DNA of 64,000 nucleotides from Deltaproteobacteria bacterium (GCA_019311115.1 JAFDDB010000004.1:5121-69120); one strand, 5' to 3'. Numbered from the stretch's first letter, positions 39,595 to 53,005 are shown. A program made the numbers and translations. The notes: generated by a model from the sequence alone, not told the origin.

Positions 39595-40475
39595 GCCGTC
39601 GCCCGAAGGTCTGGCTGATCGACGGGCACTACCAGATCTTCCGCGCCTACTACAGCATGCCCGACCTGCGCGCGCCCGATGGCACGCCGGTCGGGGCATT
39701 CCGCGGGTACGCGTCTACGCTGATCAAGTTCGTGCGCGAGGAGCAACCGACGCACGTGGGCGTGGCCTGGGACCACGCCATGACGAGCTTCCGCAACGAG
39801 CTTTGGTCGGAGTACAAGGCGGGCCGCACCGAGGCACCGGACGACCTGGAGCCGCAGTTCGGCCTCTGCGCCGAGGTCACGCGGGCGCTCGGCCTTCCGG
39901 TCTACTCGCTCGAACGCTTCGAGGCCGACGACGTCATCGCCACCATGACGCGCAAGCTCCTGGCCAAGGGGGCCGACGTCGTGATCGTGACCGCCGACAA
40001 GGACCTCGGCGCCCTGGTCTCGGACCGGGTCAGGCTCTACGACCTGAAGAAGCAGGAGAGCCAGGGACCCGACGAGCTGCGCGAACGCATGGGCGTGCCC
40101 CCGGAGCGGATCAGCGAGTTCCTGGCGTTGGTCGGCGACGCCGTCGACAACGTGCCGGGCGTGGCCGGCATCGGCGCAAAGACGGGTGCCGCGCTGCTGA
40201 ACCACTTCGGGTCGCTCGCGGACATTCCGAGCGACTTCGAAGACTGGAAGGAGCTGGAGCTGCGCGGGAAGCGGCGCGCGTTCGACTGCCTGGCGGCGGG
40301 GACCGAGCAGCTCGAGCTGTCGCAGCGCCTGGTCGAGCTGCAGCGCGACCTGCCCGTCGACGTGAAGCTCCGCGAGCTGCAGTACCGCGGCGCGCGTCGC
40401 GAGCCGCTCGAAGAGCTGCTCGGAAGACTGGGGGCGGACGCGCTGCTCGACCGCGTGACCCGCTTCGCTTCGTGA
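39591..40475 (+). CDS. Stand-alone 5'-3' exonuclease (Pol I N-terminal / FEN-like)
   Basis: VWLIDGHYQIFRAYYS and helix-3-turn-helix GVPGVAGIGAKTGAALL; ATGA overlap with the upstream stop. Confidence 0.75.
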   Translation: MSRRPKVWLIDGHYQIFRAYYSMPDLRAPDGTPVGAFRGYASTLIKFVREEQPTHVGVAWDHAMTSFRNELWSEYKAGRTEAPDDLEPQFGLCAEVTRALGLPVYSLERFEADDVIATMTRKLLAKGADVVIVTADKDLGALVSDRVRLYDLKKQESQGPDELRERMGVPPERISEFLALVGDAVDNVPGVAGIGAKTGAALLNHFGSLADIPSDFEDWKELELRGKRRAFDCLAAGTEQLELSQRLVELQRDLPVDVKLRELQYRGARREPLEELLGRLGADALLDRVTRFAS

Positions 40476-41032
40476 TCGCGCACCTGCTCACCGGCACGCG
40501 CCTCGTACTGGTGGCTCCGTTCGCGCTCCTCATGCTGCGCGACGATGCCGCCGCGCGCTGGCTCGCGGCAGGATCGCTCGTCCTCGCCATCGCCACCGAC
40601 CTGCTCGACGGGCCGGCGGCGCGCCGCGCGGCGCTGCGCAACGGACGCGGCGAGAGCGCCTGGGGACGCGCGTTCGACCACGGGACCGACTTCTTGTTCG
40701 TCACGGCGGGGCTCTTCGCCATGGCGGCGCGAGGCGCGGCCCCCTGGCTGCTGCCCGTGCTGATCTGTCTGGCCTTCGCGCAGTACGTGGTGGATTCGTA
40801 CTGGCTCGGGCGGCAACGGCAGCTGCGCATGAGCACGCTGGGGCGTTGGAACGGGATCTTCTACTTCGTGCCGCTCTGCGCCGACGTGGGCTCACGCGCG
40901 CTGCTCGGCGGCGCGCTCGCGCAGCCCGTGCTGTGGCTCGGTTGGGCGCTGGCGGCGAGCACCCTGCTCTCGATCGCCGACCGCTTGCTCGCTCTCAGGC
41001 GGAGTCCAGCAGTTCCCGCGTCGCGCGCCTGA
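40472..41032 (+). CDS. CDP-alcohol phosphatidyltransferase-family protein (186 aa)
   Basis: GTG start overlapping the exonuclease stop; motif DLLDGPAARRAALRNGRGESAWGRAFDHGTDFLF matches the D(x)2DG(x)2AR...G(x)3D(x)3D signature. Confidence 0.65.
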   Translation: MIAHLLTGTRLVLVAPFALLMLRDDAAARWLAAGSLVLAIATDLLDGPAARRAALRNGRGESAWGRAFDHGTDFLFVTAGLFAMAARGAAPWLLPVLICLAFAQYVVDSYWLGRQRQLRMSTLGRWNGIFYFVPLCADVGSRALLGGALAQPVLWLGWALAASTLLSIADRLLALRRSPAVPASRA

Positions 41033-41935
41033 GGAAGAGCAGGCCGATGGCCGCGTTGAAGAAGATGAAGAAGTTGTGCATGACGAAGCCGAACGCCGTC
41101 ATCTCGGCTTCGCGTCCCGGAAACAGCTCCACCCAGAGCACGATCGCGACCGAGCGCATCGGGCCCGGCGTGGCCGCACCGAAGAAGATCACGGGCAGGT
41201 AGCCCAGCATCTCGCCGAACTCGACGTCTACCCCGAAGAGCCCAAGCGCCAGCGTGTAGATCACGACGGCGGCGAGCAGCGCCGGAGAACGCAGCAGCAC
41301 GATCGTCCCGTACTTCCGCAGGTTCGCGCGCCGGAACGCCAGCAGGATAGGCCGGTCGCGCAGCGCGACCCCGGGCAGGATGCGGCCCTGGAAGTAGAGC
41401 ACCCACAACGCCAGGAACGCGGCGGCGGCGAGCGCCAACACGGGGATCCAGTGAAAGACCGCGGGCAGACTGTCCCAGCGCATGGCGACGCCGAGCGTCG
41501 CCCAGGCCAGCAGGTAGTAGAACTCGCAGAACATGATGAAGAGCATCGACGAGCCGACCTCCCAGCCGGGAACGTCGTCTCGCCGGTTCAAGTAGAGCGC
41601 CATCGCTCCCTTGCCGATCTGCTCGTTGATGATCGACAGGATGTAGGCGCTGCCGCGGATCGGCAGGATGTCCAGGTAGCGAACGGGAGCGTTGAACCAG
41701 CTGACTACGCGCCACACGACGAGCGTGTCGATGGCGAAGAAGAAGAGCGAGTACGGGATCATCATCCCGATCCACAGCACCCAGTTGACGTCCTGCAGGA
41801 TCCCGACCAGGTAGGTGGCCGGCGTCGCGCCGGCGCGCGCGGCCGCGGCACCGACGCGCCCGTACAGGTACCAGAAGCAGGCGAACGTGATCGCCCAGGG
41901 GAGCAGGCGGAACGCGATGGCGCGCGCTCGCCTCA
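40995..41935 (-). CDS. Polytopic membrane protein of the flippase-like / LPG-synthase-TM (UPF0104) type
   Basis: Last ~313 aa of ORF 40995..42755; eight predicted TM helices; GTG start overlaps the stop of the NmrA-like gene. Confidence 0.45.
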
Positions 41936-42856
41936 CGATGCTTCCAGGCTCCGGCGCAGCATGTCGTCGAGCGGTGTGAGATCGAGACCGAGCGCGTCGC
42001 AGGCGGGCTTCGGGTCGACGTCGGTGTCGGTCGTAATCACGTCGAGCGCGTCGGCCGAGAAGCCGGACGCACCGACCGCTCCGCGCAGCCGCAGCAGCAG
42101 GCGCAGCATGACGAGTGGGGCCGACCGCACGCGCACTTCGTGCCCCAGCTCGCGTGCCGCACGGCGCACCAGGTCCGCGTCGCTGAGTCCGTCGCGGCCC
42201 GCCACGTCGAGCACGGTGGAATCGGCGAGCCCCGGCTCGGCGGCGCGGAACGCCGCGCGCGCCAGGTCGGCCACGTCGAGCGGCTGCTGCCGCTGCCGGC
42301 CTCCGCCGGGGAGTGCCACGCTGGAGCCGCTCGCATTGCGGCGAAGCGCGGCGGCCCCCTCGGTTCCCGGTCCGAGCACGAGTGGCGCGCGCAGGATCGT
42401 CCAGGCGAGACCCGCGTCGCGGACCAGCGACTCGGCCTCGCCCTTGGTGCGGTAGTAGCGGTTCGCCGAGCCCGGGTCCGCGCCGAGTGCGCTCACCAGC
42501 ACCAGCTTGCGCACGCCCGCGGTGCGCGCCGCGTCGACGACCGCGCGGGTCGTCGCGACGTTGGCGCGTTCGTAGGTCGAGCCGGGCGACTCGACGAGGA
42601 CGCCGGGCAGGTGCACGACGCTCTCGACTCCCCCGTTCTCGACTCCCCGGAAGGCGCTGACCAGGCTGTCGGCGTCGTCGTAGTCCACGCGCGCGACCCG
42701 CGTCGCGGGTCCCAGGGCCGGGAGTTGGCTCTCCGCGCGTTCGGACCGGACGCACGCGACGATCTCACCGGCCAGCGCGTCTGCGCCGCCGGAGGCCAGC
42801 TGCAACATCGCCCGGCCGACCGCGCTGTTCGCACCGGTGATCGCGACAGGTCCCAT
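41933..42856 (-). CDS. NmrA-like / atypical SDR NAD(P)-binding protein
   Basis: MGPVAITGANSAVGRAML Rossmann N-terminus; ~300 aa. Confidence 0.55.
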   Translation of the reverse strand: MGPVAITGANSAVGRAMLQLASGGADALAGEIVACVRSERAESQLPALGPATRVARVDYDDADSLVSAFRGVENGGVESVVHLPGVLVESPGSTYERANVATTRAVVDAARTAGVRKLVLVSALGADPGSANRYYRTKGEAESLVRDAGLAWTILRAPLVLGPGTEGAAALRRNASGSSVALPGGGRQRQQPLDVADLARAAFRAAEPGLADSTVLDVAGRDGLSDADLVRRAARELGHEVRVRSAPLVMLRLLLRLRGAVGASGFSADALDVITTDTDVDPKPACDALGLDLTPLDDMLRRSLEAS

Positions 42857-42880
42857 GGCGTGAACGGCTCCAGCGAGGCC

Positions 42881-43954
42881 CTAGCGGAACTTGCCGCGCG
42901 CCGAGATCGGCCAGGTGGTCTCGAGCCGGTCTCCGCGCATCACGTGGTAGGTGTCGTGGAGGTTGATCGTGGTGTCGCCGTGCGAGGGCAGCAGGCGGAT
43001 CTTGTCGCCCGGCGCCAGGTCCAGCTCTTCGCCCTCGTCGATCTGCACGTGCCCGTGCTCTTCCGACAACCCGACTACCGCCAGGGGAAGATCCGCGCCC
43101 GTCGGCATTCCGAAGTCCCGCGACAGTGCCTTGGAGCCGCAGTCGGTGATCAGGAGCTGCCCGCGGCGGCGCAGGACCGTAGTCAGGATCGTCAGCGCGG
43201 GCTCGAACTCGTCTCGTACGCGGGAGTAGGCGCCGTCCATGAAGACGTAGCTTCCGGCCTGGATCTCGGTGATGCCCGGCGCGACGCCGCTGATGTCGTG
43301 TGTGCCCGTGCCGCCCGCACTCACGATGCCGGGCTCGAGCCCCGCGTCGACGAGCGCCTGCCGGTGCGCCTGCAGCGTGGCGACCGCCTGGCCGGCCAGG
43401 GCGGCGCGCTTCTCCGCGTCGGGAATCAGCACGGCGTGCCCTTCGTAGCCCATCAGCCCGCGGTACTCGACGCGGCTCCGCTCCAAGGCGCGTGCGAGTT
43501 CGACCGTCTCCTCTGGCGCGTCCGTCCCGCAGCGGTGCATCCCGGTGTCGGCCTCGACGAGCGCGCCGATCCGTGCGCCGCTCTGCGCGACCGCCTCGTC
43601 CAGGGCGTGGACCTGCTCGGCGGAGTCGACCGCGACGATCAGCTCGGGAAGCCGTCCGGCCAGCTCGACCAGGCGTGCCAGCTTCGGCGCGCCGACGATC
43701 TGGTTCGCGATCAGCACCGACGCGTCGAGTCCGGCCTTCGCGATCTCCTCGGCCTCGCCGATCTTCGCGCAGGTGATGCCGATCGCACCCGCTTCCAGCT
43801 GGAGCTTCGCGACCTGCGGACACTTCGGCGTCTTGAAGTGCGGTCGCAGGTTCGCGCGCTGTCCGGCGAAGAAGGCGGCCATCGTCGCGATGTTCCGCTC
43901 GACGCGGTCGAGGTCGAGCAGCAGTGCCGGCGTGTCGATCTCGGCCCAGGGCAT
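42881..43954 (-). CDS. PLP-dependent enzyme with an alanine-racemase-N-like fold (DSD1 / D-threonine aldolase / D-serine deaminase-like family)
   Basis: LRPHFKTPKC (lysine in the HxK[TS] context) and C-terminal domain typical of the D-TA/DSD1 family. Confidence 0.55.
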   Translation of the reverse strand: MPWAEIDTPALLLDLDRVERNIATMAAFFAGQRANLRPHFKTPKCPQVAKLQLEAGAIGITCAKIGEAEEIAKAGLDASVLIANQIVGAPKLARLVELAGRLPELIVAVDSAEQVHALDEAVAQSGARIGALVEADTGMHRCGTDAPEETVELARALERSRVEYRGLMGYEGHAVLIPDAEKRAALAGQAVATLQAHRQALVDAGLEPGIVSAGGTGTHDISGVAPGITEIQAGSYVFMDGAYSRVRDEFEPALTILTTVLRRRGQLLITDCGSKALSRDFGMPTGADLPLAVVGLSEEHGHVQIDEGEELDLAPGDKIRLLPSHGDTTINLHDTYHVMRGDRLETTWPISARGKFR

Positions 43955-43976
43955 GCGCAGATGCTAGCATGCGCCC

Positions 43977-45524
43977 GTGACCGGACGGCTCGTCTACGGA
44001 GCGGCCGCGCTCCTGCTCGCGGTCTCGTTGCTGGGTCTCGGATCGGCGACGCGTGCGGTGCATCACTACGCGGTCGAGATGCCGGGCGGAGTTCCCGCGA
44101 TCGTGTACGAGCCCGGTCCCGCGCGGCCGGTCCCGGGTCCGCCGCGCACCGGCGAGCCCGTTCCCGTCGTCGTGCTGGCGCACGGTTACATGGGCAACAC
44201 GTCGATGATGAGTTCACTCGCGCGGCGCCTGGCCCGGGCGGGCTACGCCTCGGTCGTGCTGGCGTTCCGCGGACACGACCGCAACCCGCGGCCGTTCTCG
44301 ACCGGCGGCTTCGACTTCGAGGGAATCCACCAGGACCTGGCGGCGGCCGTTCGCTTTGCACGTTCGCAGCCCGGCTTCGATCCCGAGCGCACCGCGGTGG
44401 CGGGCCACTCGATGGGCGCGTTCACCGCGCTCGAGTGGGCGAGCCGCGACCCCGCGGTCGACGCCGTGATCGCCATCGCGGGCGGCGCCCCGCCAGGTGG
44501 ACCCTATCCACCGCCGAACGTGCTGCTGGTCTGGGCGTCGGGAGACCCGAAGATGCTCCGCGACGGCGCGCGCGAGGCGGCCGCGTCGCTGGCGGGACTC
44601 CAGCGCGTCGTCCTCGACCGCACCTACGGCGAGTTCGCACGCGGCTCGGCGGTGCGCGCCAGCGAGGTGGACGGCGTCGACCACCTGACCATCCTCTACT
44701 CCGCGGACATGGCGCAGCGAGTCGTCGACTGGCTCGGGCAGACGCTCGGACCGGGCGTCGACGCGAGCGGCGCCACGGGCGACGGCCGCTTCGGTTGGAC
44801 GGGGCTCGGTCTCGTCTCCGCGCTGGTCCTGCTCTGGGGACTGGTCGGTCTGCTCGCGCCGTTCGTTCCGCGGGTCGAGAATCCCGTGACCACGTCGTCG
44901 CTGGGTGCGCTCGGCACACTGGCCGGAGCAATGACCGCGGGCGCGGTGCTGCTCGCGGGCGTCGACGCGGGCTCGCCCGGCGGCCCCTTCGGCTTCCTGC
45001 CTCTCGCCGTGTCGGCCCCCGTCTCGGGCTACCAGGCGCTCTGCGGAGTGCTGTTGCTGCTGGTGCTGGCGCACGGCGGCGCGCTCCGGCCCGGCCTGCG
45101 CGACTCGCGGATGTGGACCTGTGCGGGCGTCCTGCTGCTCGCGACCTACTTGATGATGGGGACGTTCCTCGAGCCCTACGCCTGGCGTTGGCTGACGCCG
45201 CAGCGCGCGCTGCACGCGTTCGTGCCGTTCGCGCTCATGCTGCCCTTCTTCGCCGCATTCGAGCTGCTGCTGCGCGGCGCGCGGCCGTGGGTGCCCATCG
45301 CCGGACGCATCGTCATCCTGGGCGTGATGGCGCTGGCCACGATCCTGCAACTGCTGCCGTTCGAGTTGTTCCTGGCGCTCGGCGGGTTCGTGGTCTTCTT
45401 CGCGCTCTTCGAGGCGATCGGCTACCGGGCGTCGCGCGTGGCGCCGAACCCGTGGCTCATGGGCGTGTACCAGGCGGGCTGGAGCGCGCTCGCGCACGCG
45501 TCGCTCTTCCCCGTCCTGGCGTAG
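43977..45524 (+). CDS. Alpha/beta-hydrolase fused to a C-terminal polytopic membrane domain (possibly CPBP/Abi-like)
   Basis: Signal peptide; nucleophile elbow GHSMG; C-terminal ~250 aa with six or more TM helices and an EExxxR-like FELLLRG. Confidence 0.55.
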   Translation: MTGRLVYGAAALLLAVSLLGLGSATRAVHHYAVEMPGGVPAIVYEPGPARPVPGPPRTGEPVPVVVLAHGYMGNTSMMSSLARRLARAGYASVVLAFRGHDRNPRPFSTGGFDFEGIHQDLAAAVRFARSQPGFDPERTAVAGHSMGAFTALEWASRDPAVDAVIAIAGGAPPGGPYPPPNVLLVWASGDPKMLRDGAREAAASLAGLQRVVLDRTYGEFARGSAVRASEVDGVDHLTILYSADMAQRVVDWLGQTLGPGVDASGATGDGRFGWTGLGLVSALVLLWGLVGLLAPFVPRVENPVTTSSLGALGTLAGAMTAGAVLLAGVDAGSPGGPFGFLPLAVSAPVSGYQALCGVLLLLVLAHGGALRPGLRDSRMWTCAGVLLLATYLMMGTFLEPYAWRWLTPQRALHAFVPFALMLPFFAAFELLLRGARPWVPIAGRIVILGVMALATILQLLPFELFLALGGFVVFFALFEAIGYRASRVAPNPWLMGVYQAGWSALAHASLFPVLA

Positions 45525-45527
45525 CCG

Positions 45528-45959
45528 TCAGGCCAAACCCGCGCGCGCGCCGAGTGCCTGGCCGTGCGAGAACTCGCACGTATTGCCCGACGGGTCGCGC
45601 ACCATCGTCAGGTAGCCCGCGACCTCGCCCGCATGGAGAGGCGCGAGCTTGAGCACGCCGTCCTCGCGTGCCAGGTCCGCGATGCGGTCGACGGCCTCGC
45701 GCGACTCGACGGCGAAGCCCAGGTGATCGCATGGAGGAGGCTCGAGCACGCGCTCGTGCGGCATGCTGAGCAGCACGATCGCCAGCTCGGGCTCCTGCTT
45801 CTCGTGCGACAGCCAGACCACGCGGATGCCGTCGTCCTCGCGCTCGTGCACCAGGTGGAGTCCGGCGTACTTCTGGTAGAAGGCGATCGACGCGTCGATG
45901 TCGTGGGTGCGCACCGCGACGTGGGTCAGCTGCGCGGCGGCCTGGCTCGGTTCACTCAT
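45528..45959 (-). CDS. VOC/glyoxalase-family protein
   Basis: THVAVRTHDIDASIAFY...HLGFAV beta-alpha-beta-beta-beta VOC pattern; last gene of the coupled operon. Confidence 0.6.
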   Translation of the reverse strand: MSEPSQAAAQLTHVAVRTHDIDASIAFYQKYAGLHLVHEREDDGIRVVWLSHEKQEPELAIVLLSMPHERVLEPPPCDHLGFAVESREAVDRIADLAREDGVLKLAPLHAGEVAGYLTMVRDPSGNTCEFSHGQALGARAGLA

Positions 45960-45993
45960 CCGGTTCTCCCCGGGCAGGTGGCGTCTCCTCTGG

Positions 45994-47139
45994 TCACGTC
46001 TGCGGGACGACGGGCTGGAGCGCGCCCATGCCGTCGTGGGGCCAGTCGATCGGTGGAAGCTGCATGCGGCCGAGTGCGCAGACCCGCGAGCCGCCGCCAG
46101 CGCGCGCGACCTCGAGCAGTCGCCGCTCCCCGCCGAAGCCCTCGTGACCCAGCGAAGATAGACCAGGTGCCAGCGAGGTGCAGCGCGCGGCGAGTCCGTC
46201 GATCCCCTCGACGGACACGAGGGGGACGTTGCGCAGCGTGCCCGGAGCGGCCGCTTCCCCGCCGGCGACGAAGACACCCCAGTCGCTGGAGCCCTCGCCG
46301 GACGGGAACCAGCACGCGGGGCTGCGCAACGCCTCTCTCGCACGCCGCTCGCGCAGCGCGACGGCCTCGCCGGCCTGCAGCGCCCCGCGTGGGATGTCGG
46401 TGCGCAGGCGCTCGAGCGCGGTCGAGAGCGCCTCGCCGAACGCCCCGGTGCGTTCTCCATCGGGGTCGTCGACGAAGATCCAGGCGGGCGACAGGCAGCC
46501 GCGACCGTCCCAGAGACAGACGTCGAGTGCGGCGCGTTCCGCCGCGCCGGCCAGGTCCGCGTCGCGTCCGACCGCGGCGGCCGAGAGCTTGTGTCCGTAG
46601 CCGACGAACGGGCGCGCTCCCGCGCGCCCGCGCAGGATCCGAACCGTCTCGTCGCTGCCGTACGCGACGACCGCGTCGGCCTCGTCGAGCGCGGAGTCGT
46701 CCGCGTCCAGCGCCAGCGCGTCCGCCACGCCCGCATCGCACTCCCGCAGCGAGGCGGCGAAGAGCCGGGGAGTCTCCGGATCGGACGACGCGGGCTTCGC
46801 CTGCACGGCGCAGCCCGCCAGCAGCGGAAGGGCGAGCGCGGAAAAGGTGCCGGTCGGCACGGTCCCGGCCAGCCAGACGGCGGCGAGCGCGGGTGCCCGC
46901 GCGTTCTCGAGTTCGCGGCGGCGCAGTGCGCGCAGGACGTCCGCAGTCCAGCCGTCGAGTCCGTCGCAGACGCCCCGTTCGATCGCGGCGCGCGACCAGA
47001 CCGGACACGCGCGGGCCAGCGCATCGCGCCACGCCGAGCCGGGAGCGCGCCAGGCCGCAAAGGTGCCCTCGAGCGCGGCGATCACCCGCTCCGCCGGCAG
47101 GACGCAGGCGGCCTCGCGTAGCGCCGCCGGGTCGCTCAC
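45994..47139 (-). CDS. LuxC-family acyl-CoA/acyl-protein reductase (fatty aldehyde-forming)
   Basis: YGSDETV...FVGYGHKLS...DVCLWDGRGCLSP, with the catalytic Cys in a GC(L)SP context as in LuxC (PF05893); GTG start overlaps the LuxE-like stop. Confidence 0.6.
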   Translation of the reverse strand: MSDPAALREAACVLPAERVIAALEGTFAAWRAPGSAWRDALARACPVWSRAAIERGVCDGLDGWTADVLRALRRRELENARAPALAAVWLAGTVPTGTFSALALPLLAGCAVQAKPASSDPETPRLFAASLRECDAGVADALALDADDSALDEADAVVAYGSDETVRILRGRAGARPFVGYGHKLSAAAVGRDADLAGAAERAALDVCLWDGRGCLSPAWIFVDDPDGERTGAFGEALSTALERLRTDIPRGALQAGEAVALRERRAREALRSPACWFPSGEGSSDWGVFVAGGEAAAPGTLRNVPLVSVEGIDGLAARCTSLAPGLSSLGHEGFGGERRLLEVARAGGGSRVCALGRMQLPPIDWPHDGMGALQPVVPQT

Positions 47140-48227
47140 CCTCCCCCCAGCAGCGCGTCGGCCGCGATCGAGCAGCCGCGCGCCTCGGCGCCGGCGATGC
47201 GTCCGCGCACCTCCAGGCCTTCCGCCGTTAGCGTGCCTTCGTCCGCGGTCTGTACCGCGAGGACCGATCCGGTGTTCGCCAGGTCGTAGTGGACCAGCAG
47301 TCCGGGCTCGCCTTCGGGGACGTCGCGCAGGTGTTCGGGGTCCACGACGCGCGTGCGTACCCAGGGAGGGATCCGCTTGCGCGTCGTGACGACGCCCGTG
47401 CGCAGCGTCGGCTCGTAGAACTGGCTGCCGAGCTCGCACATGCCGTACTGGTTGAGGATGGCGTCGGGGGGGACACCGAGCGCCTCGCTGATCCCCCCGT
47501 GCAGCTCTTCGCGCGAGAGCTCGCGCGACCGTCCCTTGAAGCCGCCGGTCTCCATCACGCGGCTGCCGTCGGGGAGCGCGAGCTTCAGGCCGACGGCGCG
47601 CATGCCGTCGATCAGGTGCACGAAGGCGAACGCGGTGCCGCAGATCGCCACCGGCGTGCGCGCGCGCTGCAGCGCCGTCATCGCGATCGCCATGTCGAGA
47701 CCGCCGTGGCCGAAGAGCATGGCGCTGTCGTCGGAGCCCAGGTCGCGGACCGCCGCGTCGAACATGTACGACAGCGACGAGTCGGGCGCGTCCCGCAGCG
47801 GCGTCGCCATCACCAGGATTCGCACGGGCTCGGGATCGGGACAGACCCAGGCGCGGAACGTCGCGCGGAGAGACGCGTCGTACAGTGCCAGTGTGTCCAG
47901 GTGCAGCTCGCCGCGGCGTTCGGTGGTGCTTCCGCTGGTCCGGAACACGCGCACGGTCTCCGCCTCGGGGAACGCCGCGAGCCGCGCCTCCTTGAACGCG
48001 CCCGTCGGCACCGACGGGATCTCCGACCAGTGTCCGACGCCTTCCGGCGCGCGTCCGAAGGCCGTGCAGAGCCTTCGGTACGGCTCGTTGTACTCGAACT
48101 GGTGCAGGAAGAGGGCGCGGGCCAGCGCGTCGAAGCGCGCTTCGTCGGCGGGCGCGTCCACGCCATCGGCGATCCAGGCCAGGACCTGGTCGTCCAGGTC
48201 CTTCCGGCTCTCGCGCGCCGCGCTCAC
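47136..48227 (-). CDS. LuxE-family acyl-protein synthetase (adenylate-forming)
   Basis: FRTSGSTTERRGELHLD (SSGTTG-like P-loop) and overall LuxE/PaaK-like topology; real start is an inner GTG of ORF 47136..49397, overlapping the aminotransferase stop. Confidence 0.6.
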   Translation of the reverse strand: MSAARESRKDLDDQVLAWIADGVDAPADEARFDALARALFLHQFEYNEPYRRLCTAFGRAPEGVGHWSEIPSVPTGAFKEARLAAFPEAETVRVFRTSGSTTERRGELHLDTLALYDASLRATFRAWVCPDPEPVRILVMATPLRDAPDSSLSYMFDAAVRDLGSDDSAMLFGHGGLDMAIAMTALQRARTPVAICGTAFAFVHLIDGMRAVGLKLALPDGSRVMETGGFKGRSRELSREELHGGISEALGVPPDAILNQYGMCELGSQFYEPTLRTGVVTTRKRIPPWVRTRVVDPEHLRDVPEGEPGLLVHYDLANTGSVLAVQTADEGTLTAEGLEVRGRIAGAEARGCSIAADALLGGG

Positions 48228-49480
48228 GCGGACAGCAGCTCCGCGAGGCGCGCGGTCGCGCCCTCGAGCAGGCTCTCCGCCACGTTGAGCGGCGGCGTCA
48301 GCGACAGCACCCGCCCGTCCGGACCCTCCTGGATCAGGATCCAACCCGACGCCAGCGCGTCTTCGACGACGCGCGCGGCGCGCGCGGCGGTGTCTAGTTC
48401 GATGCCCAGCATGAGCCCGCGGCCGCGCACGTCGACGACGCCGGGCAGTGGCGCCAGGGCGGAGCGAAGGTTCGCGAGCCAGCGCTCTCCGACCTCGGCG
48501 GCGCGGCCGGGCAGGTCGTCGCGCGCGAGCACGTCGAGCACCGCGCACGCCACGGCGCAGCCGAGCGGGTTCCCGAGGTGCGTGCTGGTGTGCCGCGCCT
48601 CCTCGCCGCGCTCTCCCCAGCCCTTCATCACGCCGGGGCGACCGGCGCAGGCCGAGATCGGAAAGCCGCCGCCGAGCGCCTTGCCGACCGTCACCAGGTC
48701 GGGAACCACGCCGTCGTGCTCGCACGCCAGCCAGCGTCCGGTGCGTCCCAGTCCGGTGTAGACCTCGTCGGCGATCAGCAGCGCGTCCTCGTCGTCGGCG
48801 ATCGCGCGCAGGTCGGACAGGAACCCGGCGGGCGCGGGGTGCGCGCCGCCTCGCCCCTGGACCGGCTCGACCAGGATCGCGCCCGCCGCGTCGGCGCGGA
48901 CGGCACGCCGCACGGCGTCGGCGTCTCCGAAGCGCACGAAGGTGGTGCGCCCGGGCAGCCGCTCGGCGAAGGGCTCGCGGAACAGCGCAGCGTGCGTCGC
49001 GTCGAGGGCTCCGAGTCCCAGCCCGTGGTACGCATCCTCGAACGCCACCACGTGTGCGCGTCCCGTCACGACGAGGGCGGTCTTGAGCGCGGACTCGACC
49101 GCGTCCGATCCCGAGGCCGACAGGATCGGCATGCCCAGGTCGGCCGGCAGCCGCCTCGTGAGCGACTCCAGCAGAGCCACGCGCACCGTCGCCGGGTGGA
49201 CGTCGGAGAGCGCGTGCGGGAGCACCGCGGCCTGCTCCTGCAGCGCGCGGGTGGCCTCGGGGTGGGCATGGCCGATCGCGGCCACCCCGAATCCGGCGAG
49301 CAGGTCGACGTAGCGGTTGCCGTCGGCGTCCCAGACGTTGGAGCCGTTCGCCCGCTCCCAGAAGATCGCCCCCGGCATCGCGCTGACCTCGGGGCACTCG
49401 ACGTGGTGCAGGCGCTCGAGCAGGGCCTGCGAGGACTTGCCGGGGACTTCGCCGCGGATCTCCGGGGGCTGCTGGCTCAT
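48224..49480 (-). CDS. Class III (omega-type) PLP aminotransferase
   Basis: GSDAVESALK, DEVYTGLGRTG and TVGKALGGG (PLP lysine) motifs. Confidence 0.75.
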   Translation of the reverse strand: MSQQPPEIRGEVPGKSSQALLERLHHVECPEVSAMPGAIFWERANGSNVWDADGNRYVDLLAGFGVAAIGHAHPEATRALQEQAAVLPHALSDVHPATVRVALLESLTRRLPADLGMPILSASGSDAVESALKTALVVTGRAHVVAFEDAYHGLGLGALDATHAALFREPFAERLPGRTTFVRFGDADAVRRAVRADAAGAILVEPVQGRGGAHPAPAGFLSDLRAIADDEDALLIADEVYTGLGRTGRWLACEHDGVVPDLVTVGKALGGGFPISACAGRPGVMKGWGERGEEARHTSTHLGNPLGCAVACAVLDVLARDDLPGRAAEVGERWLANLRSALAPLPGVVDVRGRGLMLGIELDTAARAARVVEDALASGWILIQEGPDGRVLSLTPPLNVAESLLEGATARLAELLSA

Positions 49481-49607
49481 CACTCCGCGGATGCTAGCCG
49501 GAAAGCGCGCGGCAGCGCCCGCGCAGTCGGCGCGCACGCCTGCCCGTGTCGCGTCCCGCTCAAGTCGGGACCGGATGACGCCGATGTCCGGGTCGGGAGG
49601 TCTCTAC

Positions 49608-49922
49608 ATGCAGTGGTTCGGAATGCTCCTGGTCGTGGCTTCGCTGGTGCTCGGCAGCGGTGGAGTCGCCTATCGCTCGCATGCGAGCAGCGTGGTGGGC
49701 GGACACGAGCAGTTCGGCATGACACCGGCCCAGGGCCTCGGGACCCCGGCCACCGCGCCCGTGGTCCGGGCGGCGGCGTGCCCGGCCCCGCAACCGCTCG
49801 AGATCCGGCTGCCGAAGCGCGCACGCCGGCACGTCGTGAGCCTGACCAACCGCGGCTACAACTACCGCGGCGGGCTCGCCGACCTCTCGCGCACGCAGCC
49901 TCCGGCCAGTCCGCGCGACTAG
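49608..49922 (+). CDS. Small secreted hypothetical protein
   Basis: GGAGG RBS then MQWFGMLLVVASLVLGSGGVAYRS signal-like N-terminus. Confidence 0.35.
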   Translation: MQWFGMLLVVASLVLGSGGVAYRSHASSVVGGHEQFGMTPAQGLGTPATAPVVRAAACPAPQPLEIRLPKRARRHVVSLTNRGYNYRGGLADLSRTQPPASPRD

Positions 49923-50401
49923 CCGGTAGACCGCGTCCCGCCCGGGGAAGGCCTGGGCTCCGGCGGAGCGGCATCGAGTCCGCGCCGCAGTCCGCGCCAC
50001 AGCAGTCCGTGCGCCACCCCGACCGCGACCACCGCAGGCAGGTCTCCGGCCCCGAGCCAGCCGGCCCCGAGCCAGCGAAAGGGCGCGGCGCAGAGAAGCG
50101 GGAGCGCCAGCGCCCAGAGTGAGACGCGCTGGTACTGCCAGGGAGCGAGGCGCGGTGCGCGCCCGACGAAGTGCCCCGCCACCGAGAGCAGCGCATGGCA
50201 TGCGAGCGGGACGGCGAGGGAGCCCAGCGGGACGGCGAGCAGCGTCGCCGCCAGTGCCAGCAGCGCGCCGTAGCGTCCACCCCGGCGCGCTCCCAGGATC
50301 CGCCGCAGCGCGACGCCGTCGCCGGCCACCACCCCGCGCAGGAGGCGCGGCACCTCGGCGCGGGCGACGAAGACCCGGCGCTCGGGGGTCCGCGCGCTCA
50401 C
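49919..50401 (-). CDS. Small polytopic membrane protein
   Basis: C-terminal part of ORF 49919..51445; GTG start overlapping the upstream stop; three hydrophobic helices. Confidence 0.35.
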   Translation of the reverse strand: MSARTPERRVFVARAEVPRLLRGVVAGDGVALRRILGARRGGRYGALLALAATLLAVPLGSLAVPLACHALLSVAGHFVGRAPRLAPWQYQRVSLWALALPLLCAAPFRWLGAGWLGAGDLPAVVAVGVAHGLLWRGLRRGLDAAPPEPRPSPGGTRSTG

Positions 50402-51246
50402 CGCAGCTCCGCCCGCAGCTCGGACTCGAGCTCGGCCAGCGAGCGGTGGTAGGTCCGGTCGAGTGCCCGGTCGAGGTTCCGCGTGCGCGCGAGTTCCTGG
50501 CAGAGCCAGCGCAGCTTCTGCTCGCCGTGGCGCCGGGCCAGGTACTCGATCATGCCGTGCGACTCCAGGTAGGCGAGCGAGGCGCTGTCCCCGGAGAGGT
50601 GCGCGAAGCTCGGGCCGGCCAGCGACTCGAGAGGCAGCCAGGTCCCCTGGCGCGAGGCTTCGGTCAGCACACGGTACTGCCCCGGGCCGAGCCGCCGGCC
50701 CATGGCCTGCGCCTCGACGTACTCGGCCAGCCCCTCGTTGAGCCAGGCCGGGAAGAGCCCGGGGCCGACCTCGGCCTGGATCGCCGCGTGGGTGTACTCG
50801 TGGTTGAGCGTCCCCGCGAGGGCGGCGTCGACCCGGGTCGCGCCGCGCACGTGGATGGCCCCGTCGAAGAACCCGACCGCCCGGAATCCGAAGTAGCCCT
50901 GGTACTTGGCGTCGAAGACCCCCGGGTCGTAGACCGACACGCGAACGTGGTGACCCGGCCAGATCCCGAGGAGGTTTCCGACCCGGTCGTAGGCGCGCTC
51001 GAGGATGTCGAGAAGCTGCAGCTCGAAACGGCGCCAGCCGTGGGGGCCCGAGTACTTCTCGATGTCCACGTCCTGGTACAGACGGAAGTGCGCCGACTTT
51101 CGCTCCTGGAAGTGGCCGTCCGGCTCGGCCCGGGCTTCGGGTGCGAGGGTCGAGGCGAAGCCCGCTGTGACGAGGGCCACCGACAGGAGGACGAGCCACA
51201 CCCCCCGCGTTGTCTGGATCGAAGCTCGGCGGCTGGGGGTCGGCAT
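50398..51246 (-). CDS. Secreted putative Zn-metallopeptidase (HExxH)
   Basis: Signal peptide VWLVLLSVALVTAGFAST; HEYTHA (HExxH) plus downstream NEGLAEY. Confidence 0.5.
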   Translation of the reverse strand: MPTPSRRASIQTTRGVWLVLLSVALVTAGFASTLAPEARAEPDGHFQERKSAHFRLYQDVDIEKYSGPHGWRRFELQLLDILERAYDRVGNLLGIWPGHHVRVSVYDPGVFDAKYQGYFGFRAVGFFDGAIHVRGATRVDAALAGTLNHEYTHAAIQAEVGPGLFPAWLNEGLAEYVEAQAMGRRLGPGQYRVLTEASRQGTWLPLESLAGPSFAHLSGDSASLAYLESHGMIEYLARRHGEQKLRWLCQELARTRNLDRALDRTYHRSLAELESELRAELR

Positions 51247-51359: not shown

Positions 51360-51560
51360 ATGGCAGCGAGGAAGAAGGCGAAGAAGGCCGGCGACCCGAT
51401 GATCATCTCGAAGTCGCGCGTCAAGGCGGCCGTCAAGAAGTGCAACGTTGGTGCAGAGTTCTACGGCGCGCTCGAGGGCGAGGTCCGCGACCTGATCAAG
51501 AAGGCCGAGGCCCGGTGCACGGGCAACAAGCGCAAGACCCTGCGCGCCGCCGACGTATAG
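51360..51560 (+). CDS. Bacterial singlet histone-fold protein (HBb/DUF1931-like) with a lysine-rich N-terminal tail
   Basis: Strong RBS GGGAGGAGGAG; MAARKKAKKAGDPMIISKSRVKAAVKKCNVGAEFYGALEGEVRDLIKKAEARCTGNKRKTLRAADV has the alpha1-L1-alpha2-L2-alpha3 histone-fold pattern, including the RKT-x-x-AxD ending. Confidence 0.6.
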   Translation: MAARKKAKKAGDPMIISKSRVKAAVKKCNVGAEFYGALEGEVRDLIKKAEARCTGNKRKTLRAADV

Positions 51561-51758: not shown

Positions 51759-52331
51759 ATGTCGGAGGAACGAGACGAACGGCGGGCCCGGGAGGGTCGC
51801 TGGTCGGAGCTGATGGCTGCCGGCCAGGACGGCGACGCCCCGGCGTACGAGCAGCTTCTCCGCGAGCTGCTGATCCCCCTGCGGGCCTTCGCCATGAGCC
51901 GGCTCGGAGATCCCGCCAGTGTCGACGACGTCGTGCAGAACGTATTGCTCTCCATCCACCGCGCGCGCCACAGCTACCGGCCCGAACGTCCGTTCGGTCC
52001 CTGGCTCTGGACGATCGCGCGCAACGCGGTCACCGACTCGCTGCGTGCGCGCTCGACGCGCCTGCGGCGCGAGCTGCCGATCGACGAGCTCGAGGGAATC
52101 GACGAGCCCTCGGTCGAGCAGCAGCCCCAGCTCGCCCTCTCTCCGGCGTTGCGGGCCGCCCTCGACGGACTGCCGCCGGCGCAGCGCCAGGCGGTCGAGC
52201 TGATGCACGTGCACCAGCTCAGCGTGGCCGAGGCGGCGGAGCGCGCGGGGGTGAGCCCCGGCGCGCTCAAGGTGCGCGCGCACCGCGGCTACAAGGCGCT
52301 GCGCGTGGCGCTGGCGGACGAGAAGCCATGA
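51759..52331 (+). CDS. ECF (group IV) RNA polymerase sigma factor
   Basis: Region 2 DVVQNVLLSIHRARHSY and region 4 LPPAQRQAVELMHVHQLSVAEAAERAGVSPGALKVRAHRG. Confidence 0.8.
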   Translation: MSEERDERRAREGRWSELMAAGQDGDAPAYEQLLRELLIPLRAFAMSRLGDPASVDDVVQNVLLSIHRARHSYRPERPFGPWLWTIARNAVTDSLRARSTRLRRELPIDELEGIDEPSVEQQPQLALSPALRAALDGLPPAQRQAVELMHVHQLSVAEAAERAGVSPGALKVRAHRGYKALRVALADEKP

Positions 52332-53005
52332 GCCGCTCGACCGATTCGCTGATCCGCGAGCTGAGCCGCGGGCTCCAGCCGGTCCGACGCGTCCCGCCGC
52401 TCCACCGCGTCGCGGCGCTCGCCGCCGCGCTGGCCCTGGCCACCGCCGCGATCGCGCTGGTGACCTGGGGACTCAACGAGACGTTCCGAGGCTTGAATCC
52501 CGAGCCGCGCTATTGGGTGGCCATCGCGGGGCTGCTCTCGTTCGCGGCGGGCGGAGCCGCCGCCGCGCTCGGCTCCACGGTTCCGGGCAACGATCCGCTG
52601 ATCCGCGGTGGGGTCGCGGCGATGGTCGCCGGCGCCATGCTGACCCTGCTCGGGAGCGCTCTCTTCCTGGCCCGCATCTCGGCCGGCGAGCCCGCGGGGT
52701 CGTTCTGGTCCGCGCTGTCGCTGGTCTGCCTGGGCCGCTCGAGCCTGGTCGCGATCCCGGCCGCCGCCCTGCTCACGCTGTTCGCGGCGCGCGGCTTCCC
52801 GCACCGGCCGTGGCTCACGGTCGGCTTCGGCACCCTGGGACTCGTCGCCTTCGGCGCGCTCCCGGTGACCATGAGCTGTGGGTCGGAGAGCATCTTCCAC
52901 ATCGTCTTCGCGCACGTCCTCGCGCCAGCCACGGCCGGCCTTGGGCTGTGGGCGGTTCTGTGGCTGCTCTACGCGCTGCTCCGTTCGCGCCGCGAGCAGT
53001 CCTAG
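52328..53005 (+). CDS. Polytopic anti-sigma factor (NrsF/DUF1109-like)
   Basis: ATGA overlap with the sigma gene; N-terminal LIRELSRGLQPV then six TM helices. Confidence 0.6.
   Translation: MSRSTDSLIRELSRGLQPVRRVPPLHRVAALAAALALATAAIALVTWGLNETFRGLNPEPRYWVAIAGLLSFAAGGAAAALGSTVPGNDPLIRGGVAAMVAGAMLTLLGSALFLARISAGEPAGSFWSALSLVCLGRSSLVAIPAAALLTLFAARGFPHRPWLTVGFGTLGLVAFGALPVTMSCGSESIFHIVFAHVLAPATAGLGLWAVLWLLYALLRSRREQS

Follow-up and report, generated by a model that had tools for sequence, protein, structure and literature searches.

We analyzed a block of four minus-strand genes at positions 45,528-49,480 of a 64-kb stretch of DNA (hereafter, the window) from an uncultured "Deltaproteobacteria bacterium" metagenome-assembled genome (MAG). 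The genes encode a class-III pyridoxal phosphate (PLP) aminotransferase (AT), a LuxE-like carboxylate activator, a LuxC-like reductase and a VOC/glyoxalase-fold protein; the first three are referred to below as the trio. Relatives of the trio in several other phyla lie beside genes of queuosine biosynthesis, and we consider here whether the trio might function in that pathway.

Genes and encoded proteins at 45,528-49,480

Given that the GC content of the window is approximately 71%, GC at third codon positions was used as the criterion to separate real genes from spurious open reading frames (ORFs). An earlier description of this DNA, made from the sequence alone (the sequence-only reading), had placed four genes here. 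All four ORFs were recovered at exactly those coordinates, each with a length that is a multiple of three and with third-position GC of 0.88-0.93, as is typical of coding sequence in the window. The same reading had described all four genes as chained by 4-nt GTGA overlaps. This held for the AT/LuxE-like and LuxE-like/LuxC-like junctions, and a related locus (L001) carries the same 4-nt overlaps, but the VOC gene begins 34 nt downstream of the LuxC-like gene without overlapping it, and a GGAGA-type ribosome-binding site lies ahead of it. The AT, LuxE-like and LuxC-like genes are predicted to be translationally coupled. A scan of positions 45300-50500 for promoters and terminators returned no sites. 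The features of the block are as follows:

48224..49480, minus strand: class-III (omega) PLP aminotransferase (AT), 418 amino acids (aa), PF00202; proposed last step, aldehyde to aminomethyl
48680..48682, minus strand: codon of Lys267, the PLP-binding lysine of the AT (TVGKALGGG), aligned to the LysJ 1VEF motif TLAKALGGG
48224..48227, minus strand: GTGA overlap of the AT stop codon (TGA) and the LuxE-like start codon (GTG), read in the sequence
47136..48227, minus strand: LuxE-family adenylate-forming carboxylate activator, 363 aa, PF04443; proposed first step
47172..47174, minus strand: codon of Cys352 of the LuxE-like protein, the proposed acyl carrier, 11 residues before the C-terminus
47136..47139, minus strand: GTGA overlap of the LuxE-like stop codon and the LuxC-like start codon, read in the sequence
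45994..47139, minus strand: LuxC-family acyl-thioester reductase, 381 aa, PF05893; proposed second step, thioester to aldehyde
46495..46497, minus strand: codon of Cys215, the catalytic thiol of the LuxC-like protein (D-x-x-G-C-L-S-P), aligned to the active-site Cys of 7XC6_A
45528..45959, minus strand: VOC/glyoxalase-fold protein, 143 aa, PF00903; 34 nt after the LuxC-like gene

All four family assignments exceeded the Pfam gathering scores and are not artefacts of short motifs. Profile searches with the LuxE, LuxC and AT models placed the two middle genes in the LuxE and LuxC families, and not in unrelated ones. In the public annotation, the window genes are named "long-chain fatty acid--CoA ligase" and "aspartate aminotransferase family protein"; judged against NCBIfam models, none of the four proteins appears to be the orthologue of a named enzyme.

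The AT matched PF00202 (Aminotran_3) with 298.8 bits (gathering cut-off 30.5). It fell below every ArgD, LysJ and GabT equivalog cut-off in NCBIfam, scoring 312 versus 457 for NF002874 and 301 versus 410 for TIGR00707, the two ArgD models. Its best solved relative was LysJ (PDB 1VEF, 232 bits), and it reached 257 bits against the NCBIfam PigE model.

The LuxE-like protein matched PF04443 over residues 190-354 with 58.4 bits (cut-off 24.9), and scored 62.9 bits against the luminescence LuxE equivalog NF052244, for which the cut-off is 550. By phmmer, its sole match among PDB sequences was LuxE 7XC6_E (E 3.5e-13), through stretches 34-101 and 209-333. Conserved motifs of the protein are TSGST, METGGFKGRSRE, NQYGMCE and PPWVRTR. 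Towards the C-terminus, Cys352 (of 363 residues), within an RGCS motif, was kept in all 147 relatives that reach that column, with 7-14 residues after it. In Photobacterium LuxE, the acyl group is carried on Cys364 (of 373), likewise near the C-terminus, according to the work on the 7XC6 structure (PMC12041015); the two cysteines mirror each other by this closeness to the C-terminus, not by direct alignment. An AlphaFold2 model of the LuxE-like protein (predicted local distance difference test [pLDDT] score 84.4, predicted template modelling [pTM] score 0.86) showed a short PaaK-like adenylate-forming (ANL) fold, and the top Foldseek matches of the model were PaaK1/2, BT_0428 and 2-hydroxyisobutyryl-CoA ligase (E ~1e-12). 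The fold is thus predicted to be nearest to those of small-aromatic-acid ligases of the PaaK (phenylacetate-CoA) type. The C-terminal tail had low pLDDT in the model and, because of this low confidence, is probably flexible.

The LuxC-like protein matched PF05893 with 140.9 bits (cut-off 21) across profile positions 79-397 of 401, and scored 31.5 bits against the luminescence LuxC equivalog NF052251 (cut-off 750). Here too the sole phmmer match among PDB sequences came from the same structure, LuxC 7XC6_A (E 1.6e-3). The GCLSP cysteine that the sequence-only reading had taken to be catalytic is Cys215 (wdgrGClsp), which aligned with the active-site cysteine of 7XC6_A (ydqqaCfst) and was invariant in 104 of 104 relatives. 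Fusions of LuxE and LuxC into single proteins exist among the relatives. Finally, the VOC protein matched PF00903 (Glyoxalase) with 47.6 bits (cut-off 20.6) and reached no specific NCBIfam equivalog.

The trio and its neighbors in other phyla

Related loci were drawn from species-representative genomes (70) and metagenomes (80), with several more obtained by exact look-up, and about 20 kb of sequence was considered per locus; those flanked by 3 kb or more on each side (n = 67) were counted as fully flanked. LuxC adjoined LuxE in 63/67 fully flanked loci, and an AT gene lay within 5 kb in 40/67. The operon, whose conservation the sequence-only reading had put forward as a check, is therefore kept as a unit across phyla. 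The gene order was AT-LuxE-LuxC in Myxococcota, Verrucomicrobiae, NC10 and Chlamydiae, and LuxE-LuxC-AT in Bacillota/Symbiobacteriaceae and Nitrospirae. This shuffling between phyla argues that the linkage is functional rather than merely inherited. As chemistry, a carboxylate-to-amine module comprising activation, thioester relay, reduction to aldehyde and transamination is a well-founded reading of the trio, and the acid-to-aldehyde-to-amine logic of the earlier reading, with ATP activation, thioester reduction and transamination, appears sound. The LuxE-like family comprises 845 clusters at 50% identity (E < 1e-30), its members at present carrying the annotation "long-chain fatty acid--CoA ligase" or "hypothetical protein". 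All 70 matches to the family in the genome collection (L003-L072), which was scanned non-exhaustively by two peptide patterns, were MAGs, with zero isolates.

Outside the Myxococcota clade, a que gene lay next door in 14 of the 20 fully flanked loci with a linked AT. The order QueD-QueE-LuxE-LuxC-AT was found in Bacillota/Symbiobacteriaceae (L029, L048, L049), where QueD scored 96.9 against TIGR03367 (cut-off 89.25) and the QueE homologue had TIGR04349 as its best model, with 262 bits and thus below the cut-off of 300. Among Verrucomicrobiae, QueE is accompanied by an 81-91-aa ORF and AT-LuxE-LuxC (L076, L077, L089, L092, L102, L156-L158), with tight spacing in L157 and L158; the QueE of L076 scored 312.6 against TIGR04349 (cut-off 300). 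In L127 and L153, QueE-AT is followed by a membrane methyltransferase gene and then LuxE-LuxC, whereas eight NC10/Methylomirabilota loci and L107 carry QueG-AT-LuxE-LuxC, with QueG scoring 385 against TIGR00276 (cut-off 200). In L162, the QueE homologue and the LuxE-like gene overlap by 4 nt. Judging from these arrangements, the queuosine linkage appears to have arisen independently several times, and QueD, QueE and QueG appear to be the only partners that recur across phyla. Neither the window nor any of the approximately 150 loci contained QueC, QueF, Tgt or QueA.

Related searches for a queuosine connection gave negative results. The N-terminal extensions of ten longer LuxE-like representatives contained zero fused que domains. 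Viral contigs yielded zero relatives, and hence no sign of a role in phage 7-deazaguanine DNA modification. A literature search, short on subscription journals, found no report that connects queuosine or preQ1 with LuxE/LuxC-type proteins, a carboxylate reductase or a transaminase. An early impression that the QueG-linked L107 adjoins the Myxococcota supergroup was unconfirmed on a tree check.

Several further genes accompany the trio in particular lineages. The Verrucomicrobial 81-91-aa ORF lies between QueE and the AT (L076:8260-8645; L157:8426-8686; L156:7101-7373) and could be an unrecognised pathway partner. The gene between the AT and LuxE-like genes of L127 (7733-8155) and L153 encodes a membrane methyltransferase of the ICMT/PEMT type. 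In the window, a conserved ORF of ~148 aa (49919-50365, minus strand) occupies the 917-bp gap upstream of the AT; its product is membrane-protein-like, belongs to a cluster present in ~12 Myxococcota loci and has no Pfam match. For the small ORFs beside the operons as a whole, i.e., the Verrucomicrobial ORF, an NC10 ORF of ~92 aa, a Chlamydiae/Auribacterota ORF of 471 aa and that of the window, there was no informative Pfam or NCBIfam match.

A VOC gene followed LuxC in 15 of 153 loci, every one of them in the Myxococcota clade (56-64% identity), and was absent from all que-linked loci. This confined distribution marks the VOC gene as an accessory, lineage-specific component outside the conserved core, although the sequence-only reading had listed it with the other three genes of the operon.

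The window operon sits inside a syntenic housekeeping block with ProRS, RNase D, pseudouridine synthase, UvrD and GlmS, and further housekeeping genes of the window encode chorismate synthase, MutY and Acs. Across the Myxococcota clade, genes for ProRS, a 5'-3' exonuclease, an acyl-CoA dehydrogenase and a pseudouridine synthase, among others, share a long syntenic block with the operon. By its gene content, the window looks to be housekeeping territory and not a biosynthetic cluster. Approximately 44 of the ~64 window genes (~15 kb on each side of the operon plus ten elsewhere) were scanned with Pfam. Luciferase and LuxD families were absent from these, in agreement with the sequence-only reading's statement that there is no luciferase here, and the scanned genes included no acyl carrier protein, thioesterase, or polyketide synthase/nonribosomal peptide synthetase.

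Positions 40472-45524, kept with the operon throughout the Myxococcota clade, encode an alpha/beta hydrolase (plus strand), a BhcC-like aldolase/dehydratase of the Ala-racemase fold, an NAD-dependent epimerase-like protein, a 313-aa protein without a family match and a CDP-alcohol phosphatidyltransferase. We rejected this block as a component of the system, as it travels with ProRS, is absent outside the clade and reflects lineage synteny; a functional link of the block to the VOC protein or the trio may nevertheless exist. On the other side of the operon, genes at 51813-52331 and 52328-53005, considered as QueD and QueE candidates, were rejected when they proved to encode an ECF sigma factor and an NrsF-type anti-sigma factor (51813-53005, plus strand, 4-nt overlap). 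A conserved 66-aa ORF (51360-51560) precedes this pair and recurs in related loci.

A candidate route to preQ1 and its alternatives

Queuosine is a near-universal modification of the tRNA wobble position, and its precursor pathway, through FolE, QueD, QueE, QueC and QueF, is treated as a single de novo route. The product of QueE, 7-carboxy-7-deazaguanine (CDG), is the sole carboxylic acid in the pathway downstream of QueE. In the canonical route, QueC converts CDG into the nitrile preQ0, from which the nitrile reductase QueF gives preQ1, the substrate of bacterial Tgt. Conversion of the CDG carboxyl group to a formyl and then to an aminomethyl group would yield exactly preQ1. Since the Bacillota order resembles that of a queCDEF operon with the trio in place of queC and queF, we propose that the trio bypasses these two enzymes.

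In the proposed mechanism, the LuxE-like protein would use ATP to adenylate the CDG carboxylate and then shift the acyl group to its own Cys352. Its flexible tail would deliver the acyl group to the LuxC-like reductase, at Cys215, and reduction of the thioester with NAD(P)H would give 7-formyl-7-deazaguanine. The PLP aminotransferase, acting through Lys267, would convert the aldehyde into the aminomethyl group, probably with glutamate as the donor, and the resulting preQ1 would enter tRNA via Tgt. We infer the substrate, cofactor and amino donor in this scheme, as well as the transfer of the function to the Myxococcota operon.

At the level of the family, we consider a link of the trio to queuosine likely, and propose that the trio is a non-orthologous replacement of QueC and QueF that converts CDG into preQ1. 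Two further points favor this bypass: the predicted fold of the LuxE-like protein, nearest to ligases of small aromatic acids, and the position of the window operon in a syntenic housekeeping block. That the window operon, as the Myxococcota version, itself makes preQ1 from CDG is a proposition to which we give an even chance. Its transfer from the que-linked operons is favored by three arguments. First, the AT-LuxE-LuxC composition and order match those of the QueE- and QueG-linked operons. Second, sequence comparison places the window AT closer to its QueE-linked Verrucomicrobial counterparts (42-46% identity, 291-337 bits) than to the E. coli enzymes ArgD, GabT and AstC (33-35% identity, 179-196 bits). 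Third, LuxE-like proteins associated with other aldehyde consumers branch separately, those linked to alcohol dehydrogenase (ADH) or short-chain dehydrogenase (SDR) genes forming a separate branch in a neighbor-joining tree.

Other observations weigh against the preQ1 assignment, above all for the window. Transfer to the window is the weak link and rests on orthology at ~45% identity. No que gene was found in the 64-kb window, nor in the ~31 loci of the Myxococcota clade, nor beside the operon in a 24-locus sister group, in which the downstream genes are instead Rrf2 and SufBCD. Rfam scans of the window and of eight operon loci detected neither a preQ1 riboswitch nor any other element at the gathering score, although genuine que operons often lack a preQ1 riboswitch. 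Conserved positions also failed to separate que-linked from AT-less clades: of the 63 LuxE-like positions conserved at ≥95% in the que-linked set, 53 were kept in Myxococcota and 55 in AT-less Gemmatimonadota. The distance of the window AT to the trio ATs of NC10 and Bacillota is the same as that to E. coli ArgD, so that AT recruitment may have happened repeatedly. Several clades, such as Eisenbacteria and Gemmatimonadota, have LuxE-LuxC without a nearby AT. Fusions of the LuxE-like protein to a Zn-ADH (P0129, P0136) show 45-49% identity, similar to que-linked members, and L165 (8607-13499; GCA_000761485.1) carries an operon of overlapping genes for a sodium:solute symporter, LuxE, LuxC and an SDR, its LuxE-like protein being 49% identical to that of the window. 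Given these ADH and SDR partners at comparable identity, the LuxE-like family is not uniform in function. The deep nodes of the neighbor-joining trees are, moreover, weak.

The loci with other partners also present features of their own. Zn-ADH-LuxE fusions were found at L155:556-4319, where LuxC follows, and in P0129, P0136 and P0134; their domain make-up implies an acid-to-aldehyde-to-alcohol version of the module, on a separate branch of the family. The L165 operon looks like an uptake-and-reduction module for some carboxylate. At the Eisenbacteria-type loci (L053-L066, L072), with LuxE-LuxC and no AT, a LOG/TIGR00730-family gene lies directly upstream in ~10, and most also have a divergent NadE gene. 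In E. coli, queF adjoins ppnN, another LOG-family gene, a parallel with the Eisenbacteria-type loci that is possibly a coincidence.

In an alternative that we regard as possible, if on the unlikely side, the substrate has diverged and the Myxococcota module makes an amine from another small carboxylate, the VOC protein perhaps participating. The lack of que neighbors throughout the Myxococcota clade and its sister group, the other downstream enzymes found in the family at similar identity, and the conservation of the VOC gene in the Myxococcota clade alone are all in keeping with such a divergence. It is harder to reconcile with a make-up and order of AT-LuxE-LuxC identical to those of the QueG- and QueE-linked operons, or with the grouping of the window AT with the QueE-linked Verrucomicrobial ATs, and no genes of an alternative pathway recur beside the operon.

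The sequence-only reading had favored a fatty acid substrate, with the LuxE- and LuxC-like proteins reducing a long-chain fatty acid and the AT giving a long-chain primary amine or amino-lipid precursor. We now consider this improbable. The Pfam names and the NCBI annotation "long-chain fatty acid--CoA ligase" do point towards it, and there is a precedent in the LuxC-like reduction and transamination that give dodecylamine for tambjamine BE-18591 (bioRxiv 10.1101/2025.08.11.669332). The proteins, however, score far below the luminescence LuxE and LuxC cut-offs (62.9 versus 550 and 31.5 versus 750), and the nearest folds of the modeled LuxE-like protein are small-acid ligases. Neighbors of lipid type do occur, namely the acyl-CoA dehydrogenase, CDP-alcohol phosphatidyltransferase and alpha/beta hydrolase genes of the window and a YhhN gene in L002, but they are kept only in the Myxococcota clade, together with ProRS and housekeeping genes, as expected of lineage synteny. 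Genes for an acyl carrier protein, a LuxD-type thioesterase or fatty acid synthesis do not recur beside the trio, and a fatty acid substrate would leave the cross-phylum context of QueD, QueE and QueG without explanation.

Finally, a bypass of ArgB/ArgC or LysZ/LysY, in which an N-acyl-glutamate or aminoadipate carboxylate would be reduced to the semialdehyde and converted by an ArgD/LysJ-like AT into N-acetylornithine or a lysine precursor, is formally analogous in its chemistry and would suit an AT that, in profile and structure comparisons, matches acetylornithine, LysJ and GABA aminotransferases best, yet it is very improbable, as the AT misses all of the ArgD, LysJ and GabT equivalog cut-offs, zero arg or lys genes were present in the neighborhoods examined and the que linkage would go unaccounted for.

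We return, therefore, to the conversion of CDG into preQ1 by the trio. The broader proposition, evenly balanced in our estimation, is that a new preQ1 route free of QueC and QueF extends over mostly uncultured Verrucomicrobiota, Methylomirabilota (NC10), Bacillota/Symbiobacteriaceae, Myxococcota and others, with the window operon as its Myxococcota version. If true, preQ1 would have two de novo routes, the second one built from unrelated enzymes. Genomes without QueC and QueF are usually scored as dependent on salvage, and the prediction of queuosine capability would be altered for large uncultured groups. The route would also make 7-formyl-7-deazaguanine a new intermediate of deazapurine metabolism, and give the first function of LuxE/LuxC-type proteins outside light production and lipids.

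Comparison with known systems

The LuxE-LuxC pair of Photobacterium phosphoreum (7XC6) shares with the window both protein families, genes that are adjacent or fused, and both conserved cysteines. By analogy, its chemistry would also be shared, i.e., adenylation, formation of a thioester on the C-terminal Cys of LuxE, transfer to the Cys of LuxC and reduction to the aldehyde. The two systems differ in that the sequences are only remotely related (E 3.5e-13 and 1.6e-3), with scores far below the equivalog cut-offs. Unlike the lux system, moreover, the window has no luxA, luxB or luxD, the aldehyde would pass to an aminotransferase and not to luciferase, and the proposed substrate is a deazapurine carboxylate instead of myristate.

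Compared with QueC and QueF, the trio has the same proposed start (CDG) and end (preQ1), and its relatives, beside QueD, QueE or QueG, take the place that queC and queF have in canonical operons. The proteins are, however, unrelated, and the intermediates would be an acyl-adenylate, a thioester and an aldehyde, as opposed to an amide, a nitrile and a thioimide. In the proposed route, an amino acid would supply the nitrogen via PLP, in place of ammonia. The expected cost of the trio route is one ATP, one NAD(P)H and one amino donor, compared with two ATP and two NADPH for the textbook QueC/QueF route.

Conversion of an activated carboxyl group to an aldehyde and then to an amine by a class-III AT is also carried out by TabE and its partner AT (tambjamine BE-18591), PigE (prodigiosin) and MxcG/MxcL (myxochelin B). 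TabE, which gives dodecanal, groups with LuxC in a sequence-similarity network (bioRxiv 10.1101/2025.08.11.669332). Whereas these enzymes act on acyl chains bound to a carrier protein or CoA, within biosynthetic clusters, the window trio lies among housekeeping genes, brings a LuxE-type activator of its own and lacks a carrier protein. Cascades of carboxylic acid reductase (CAR) and an omega-transaminase achieve the same net transformation, including that of aromatic and heteroaromatic acids. CAR combines adenylation, carrier and reductase parts in one large protein and requires phosphopantetheinylation; in the window, two small proteins would suffice, with the cysteine tail of the LuxE-like protein serving, by analogy, as the swinging arm.

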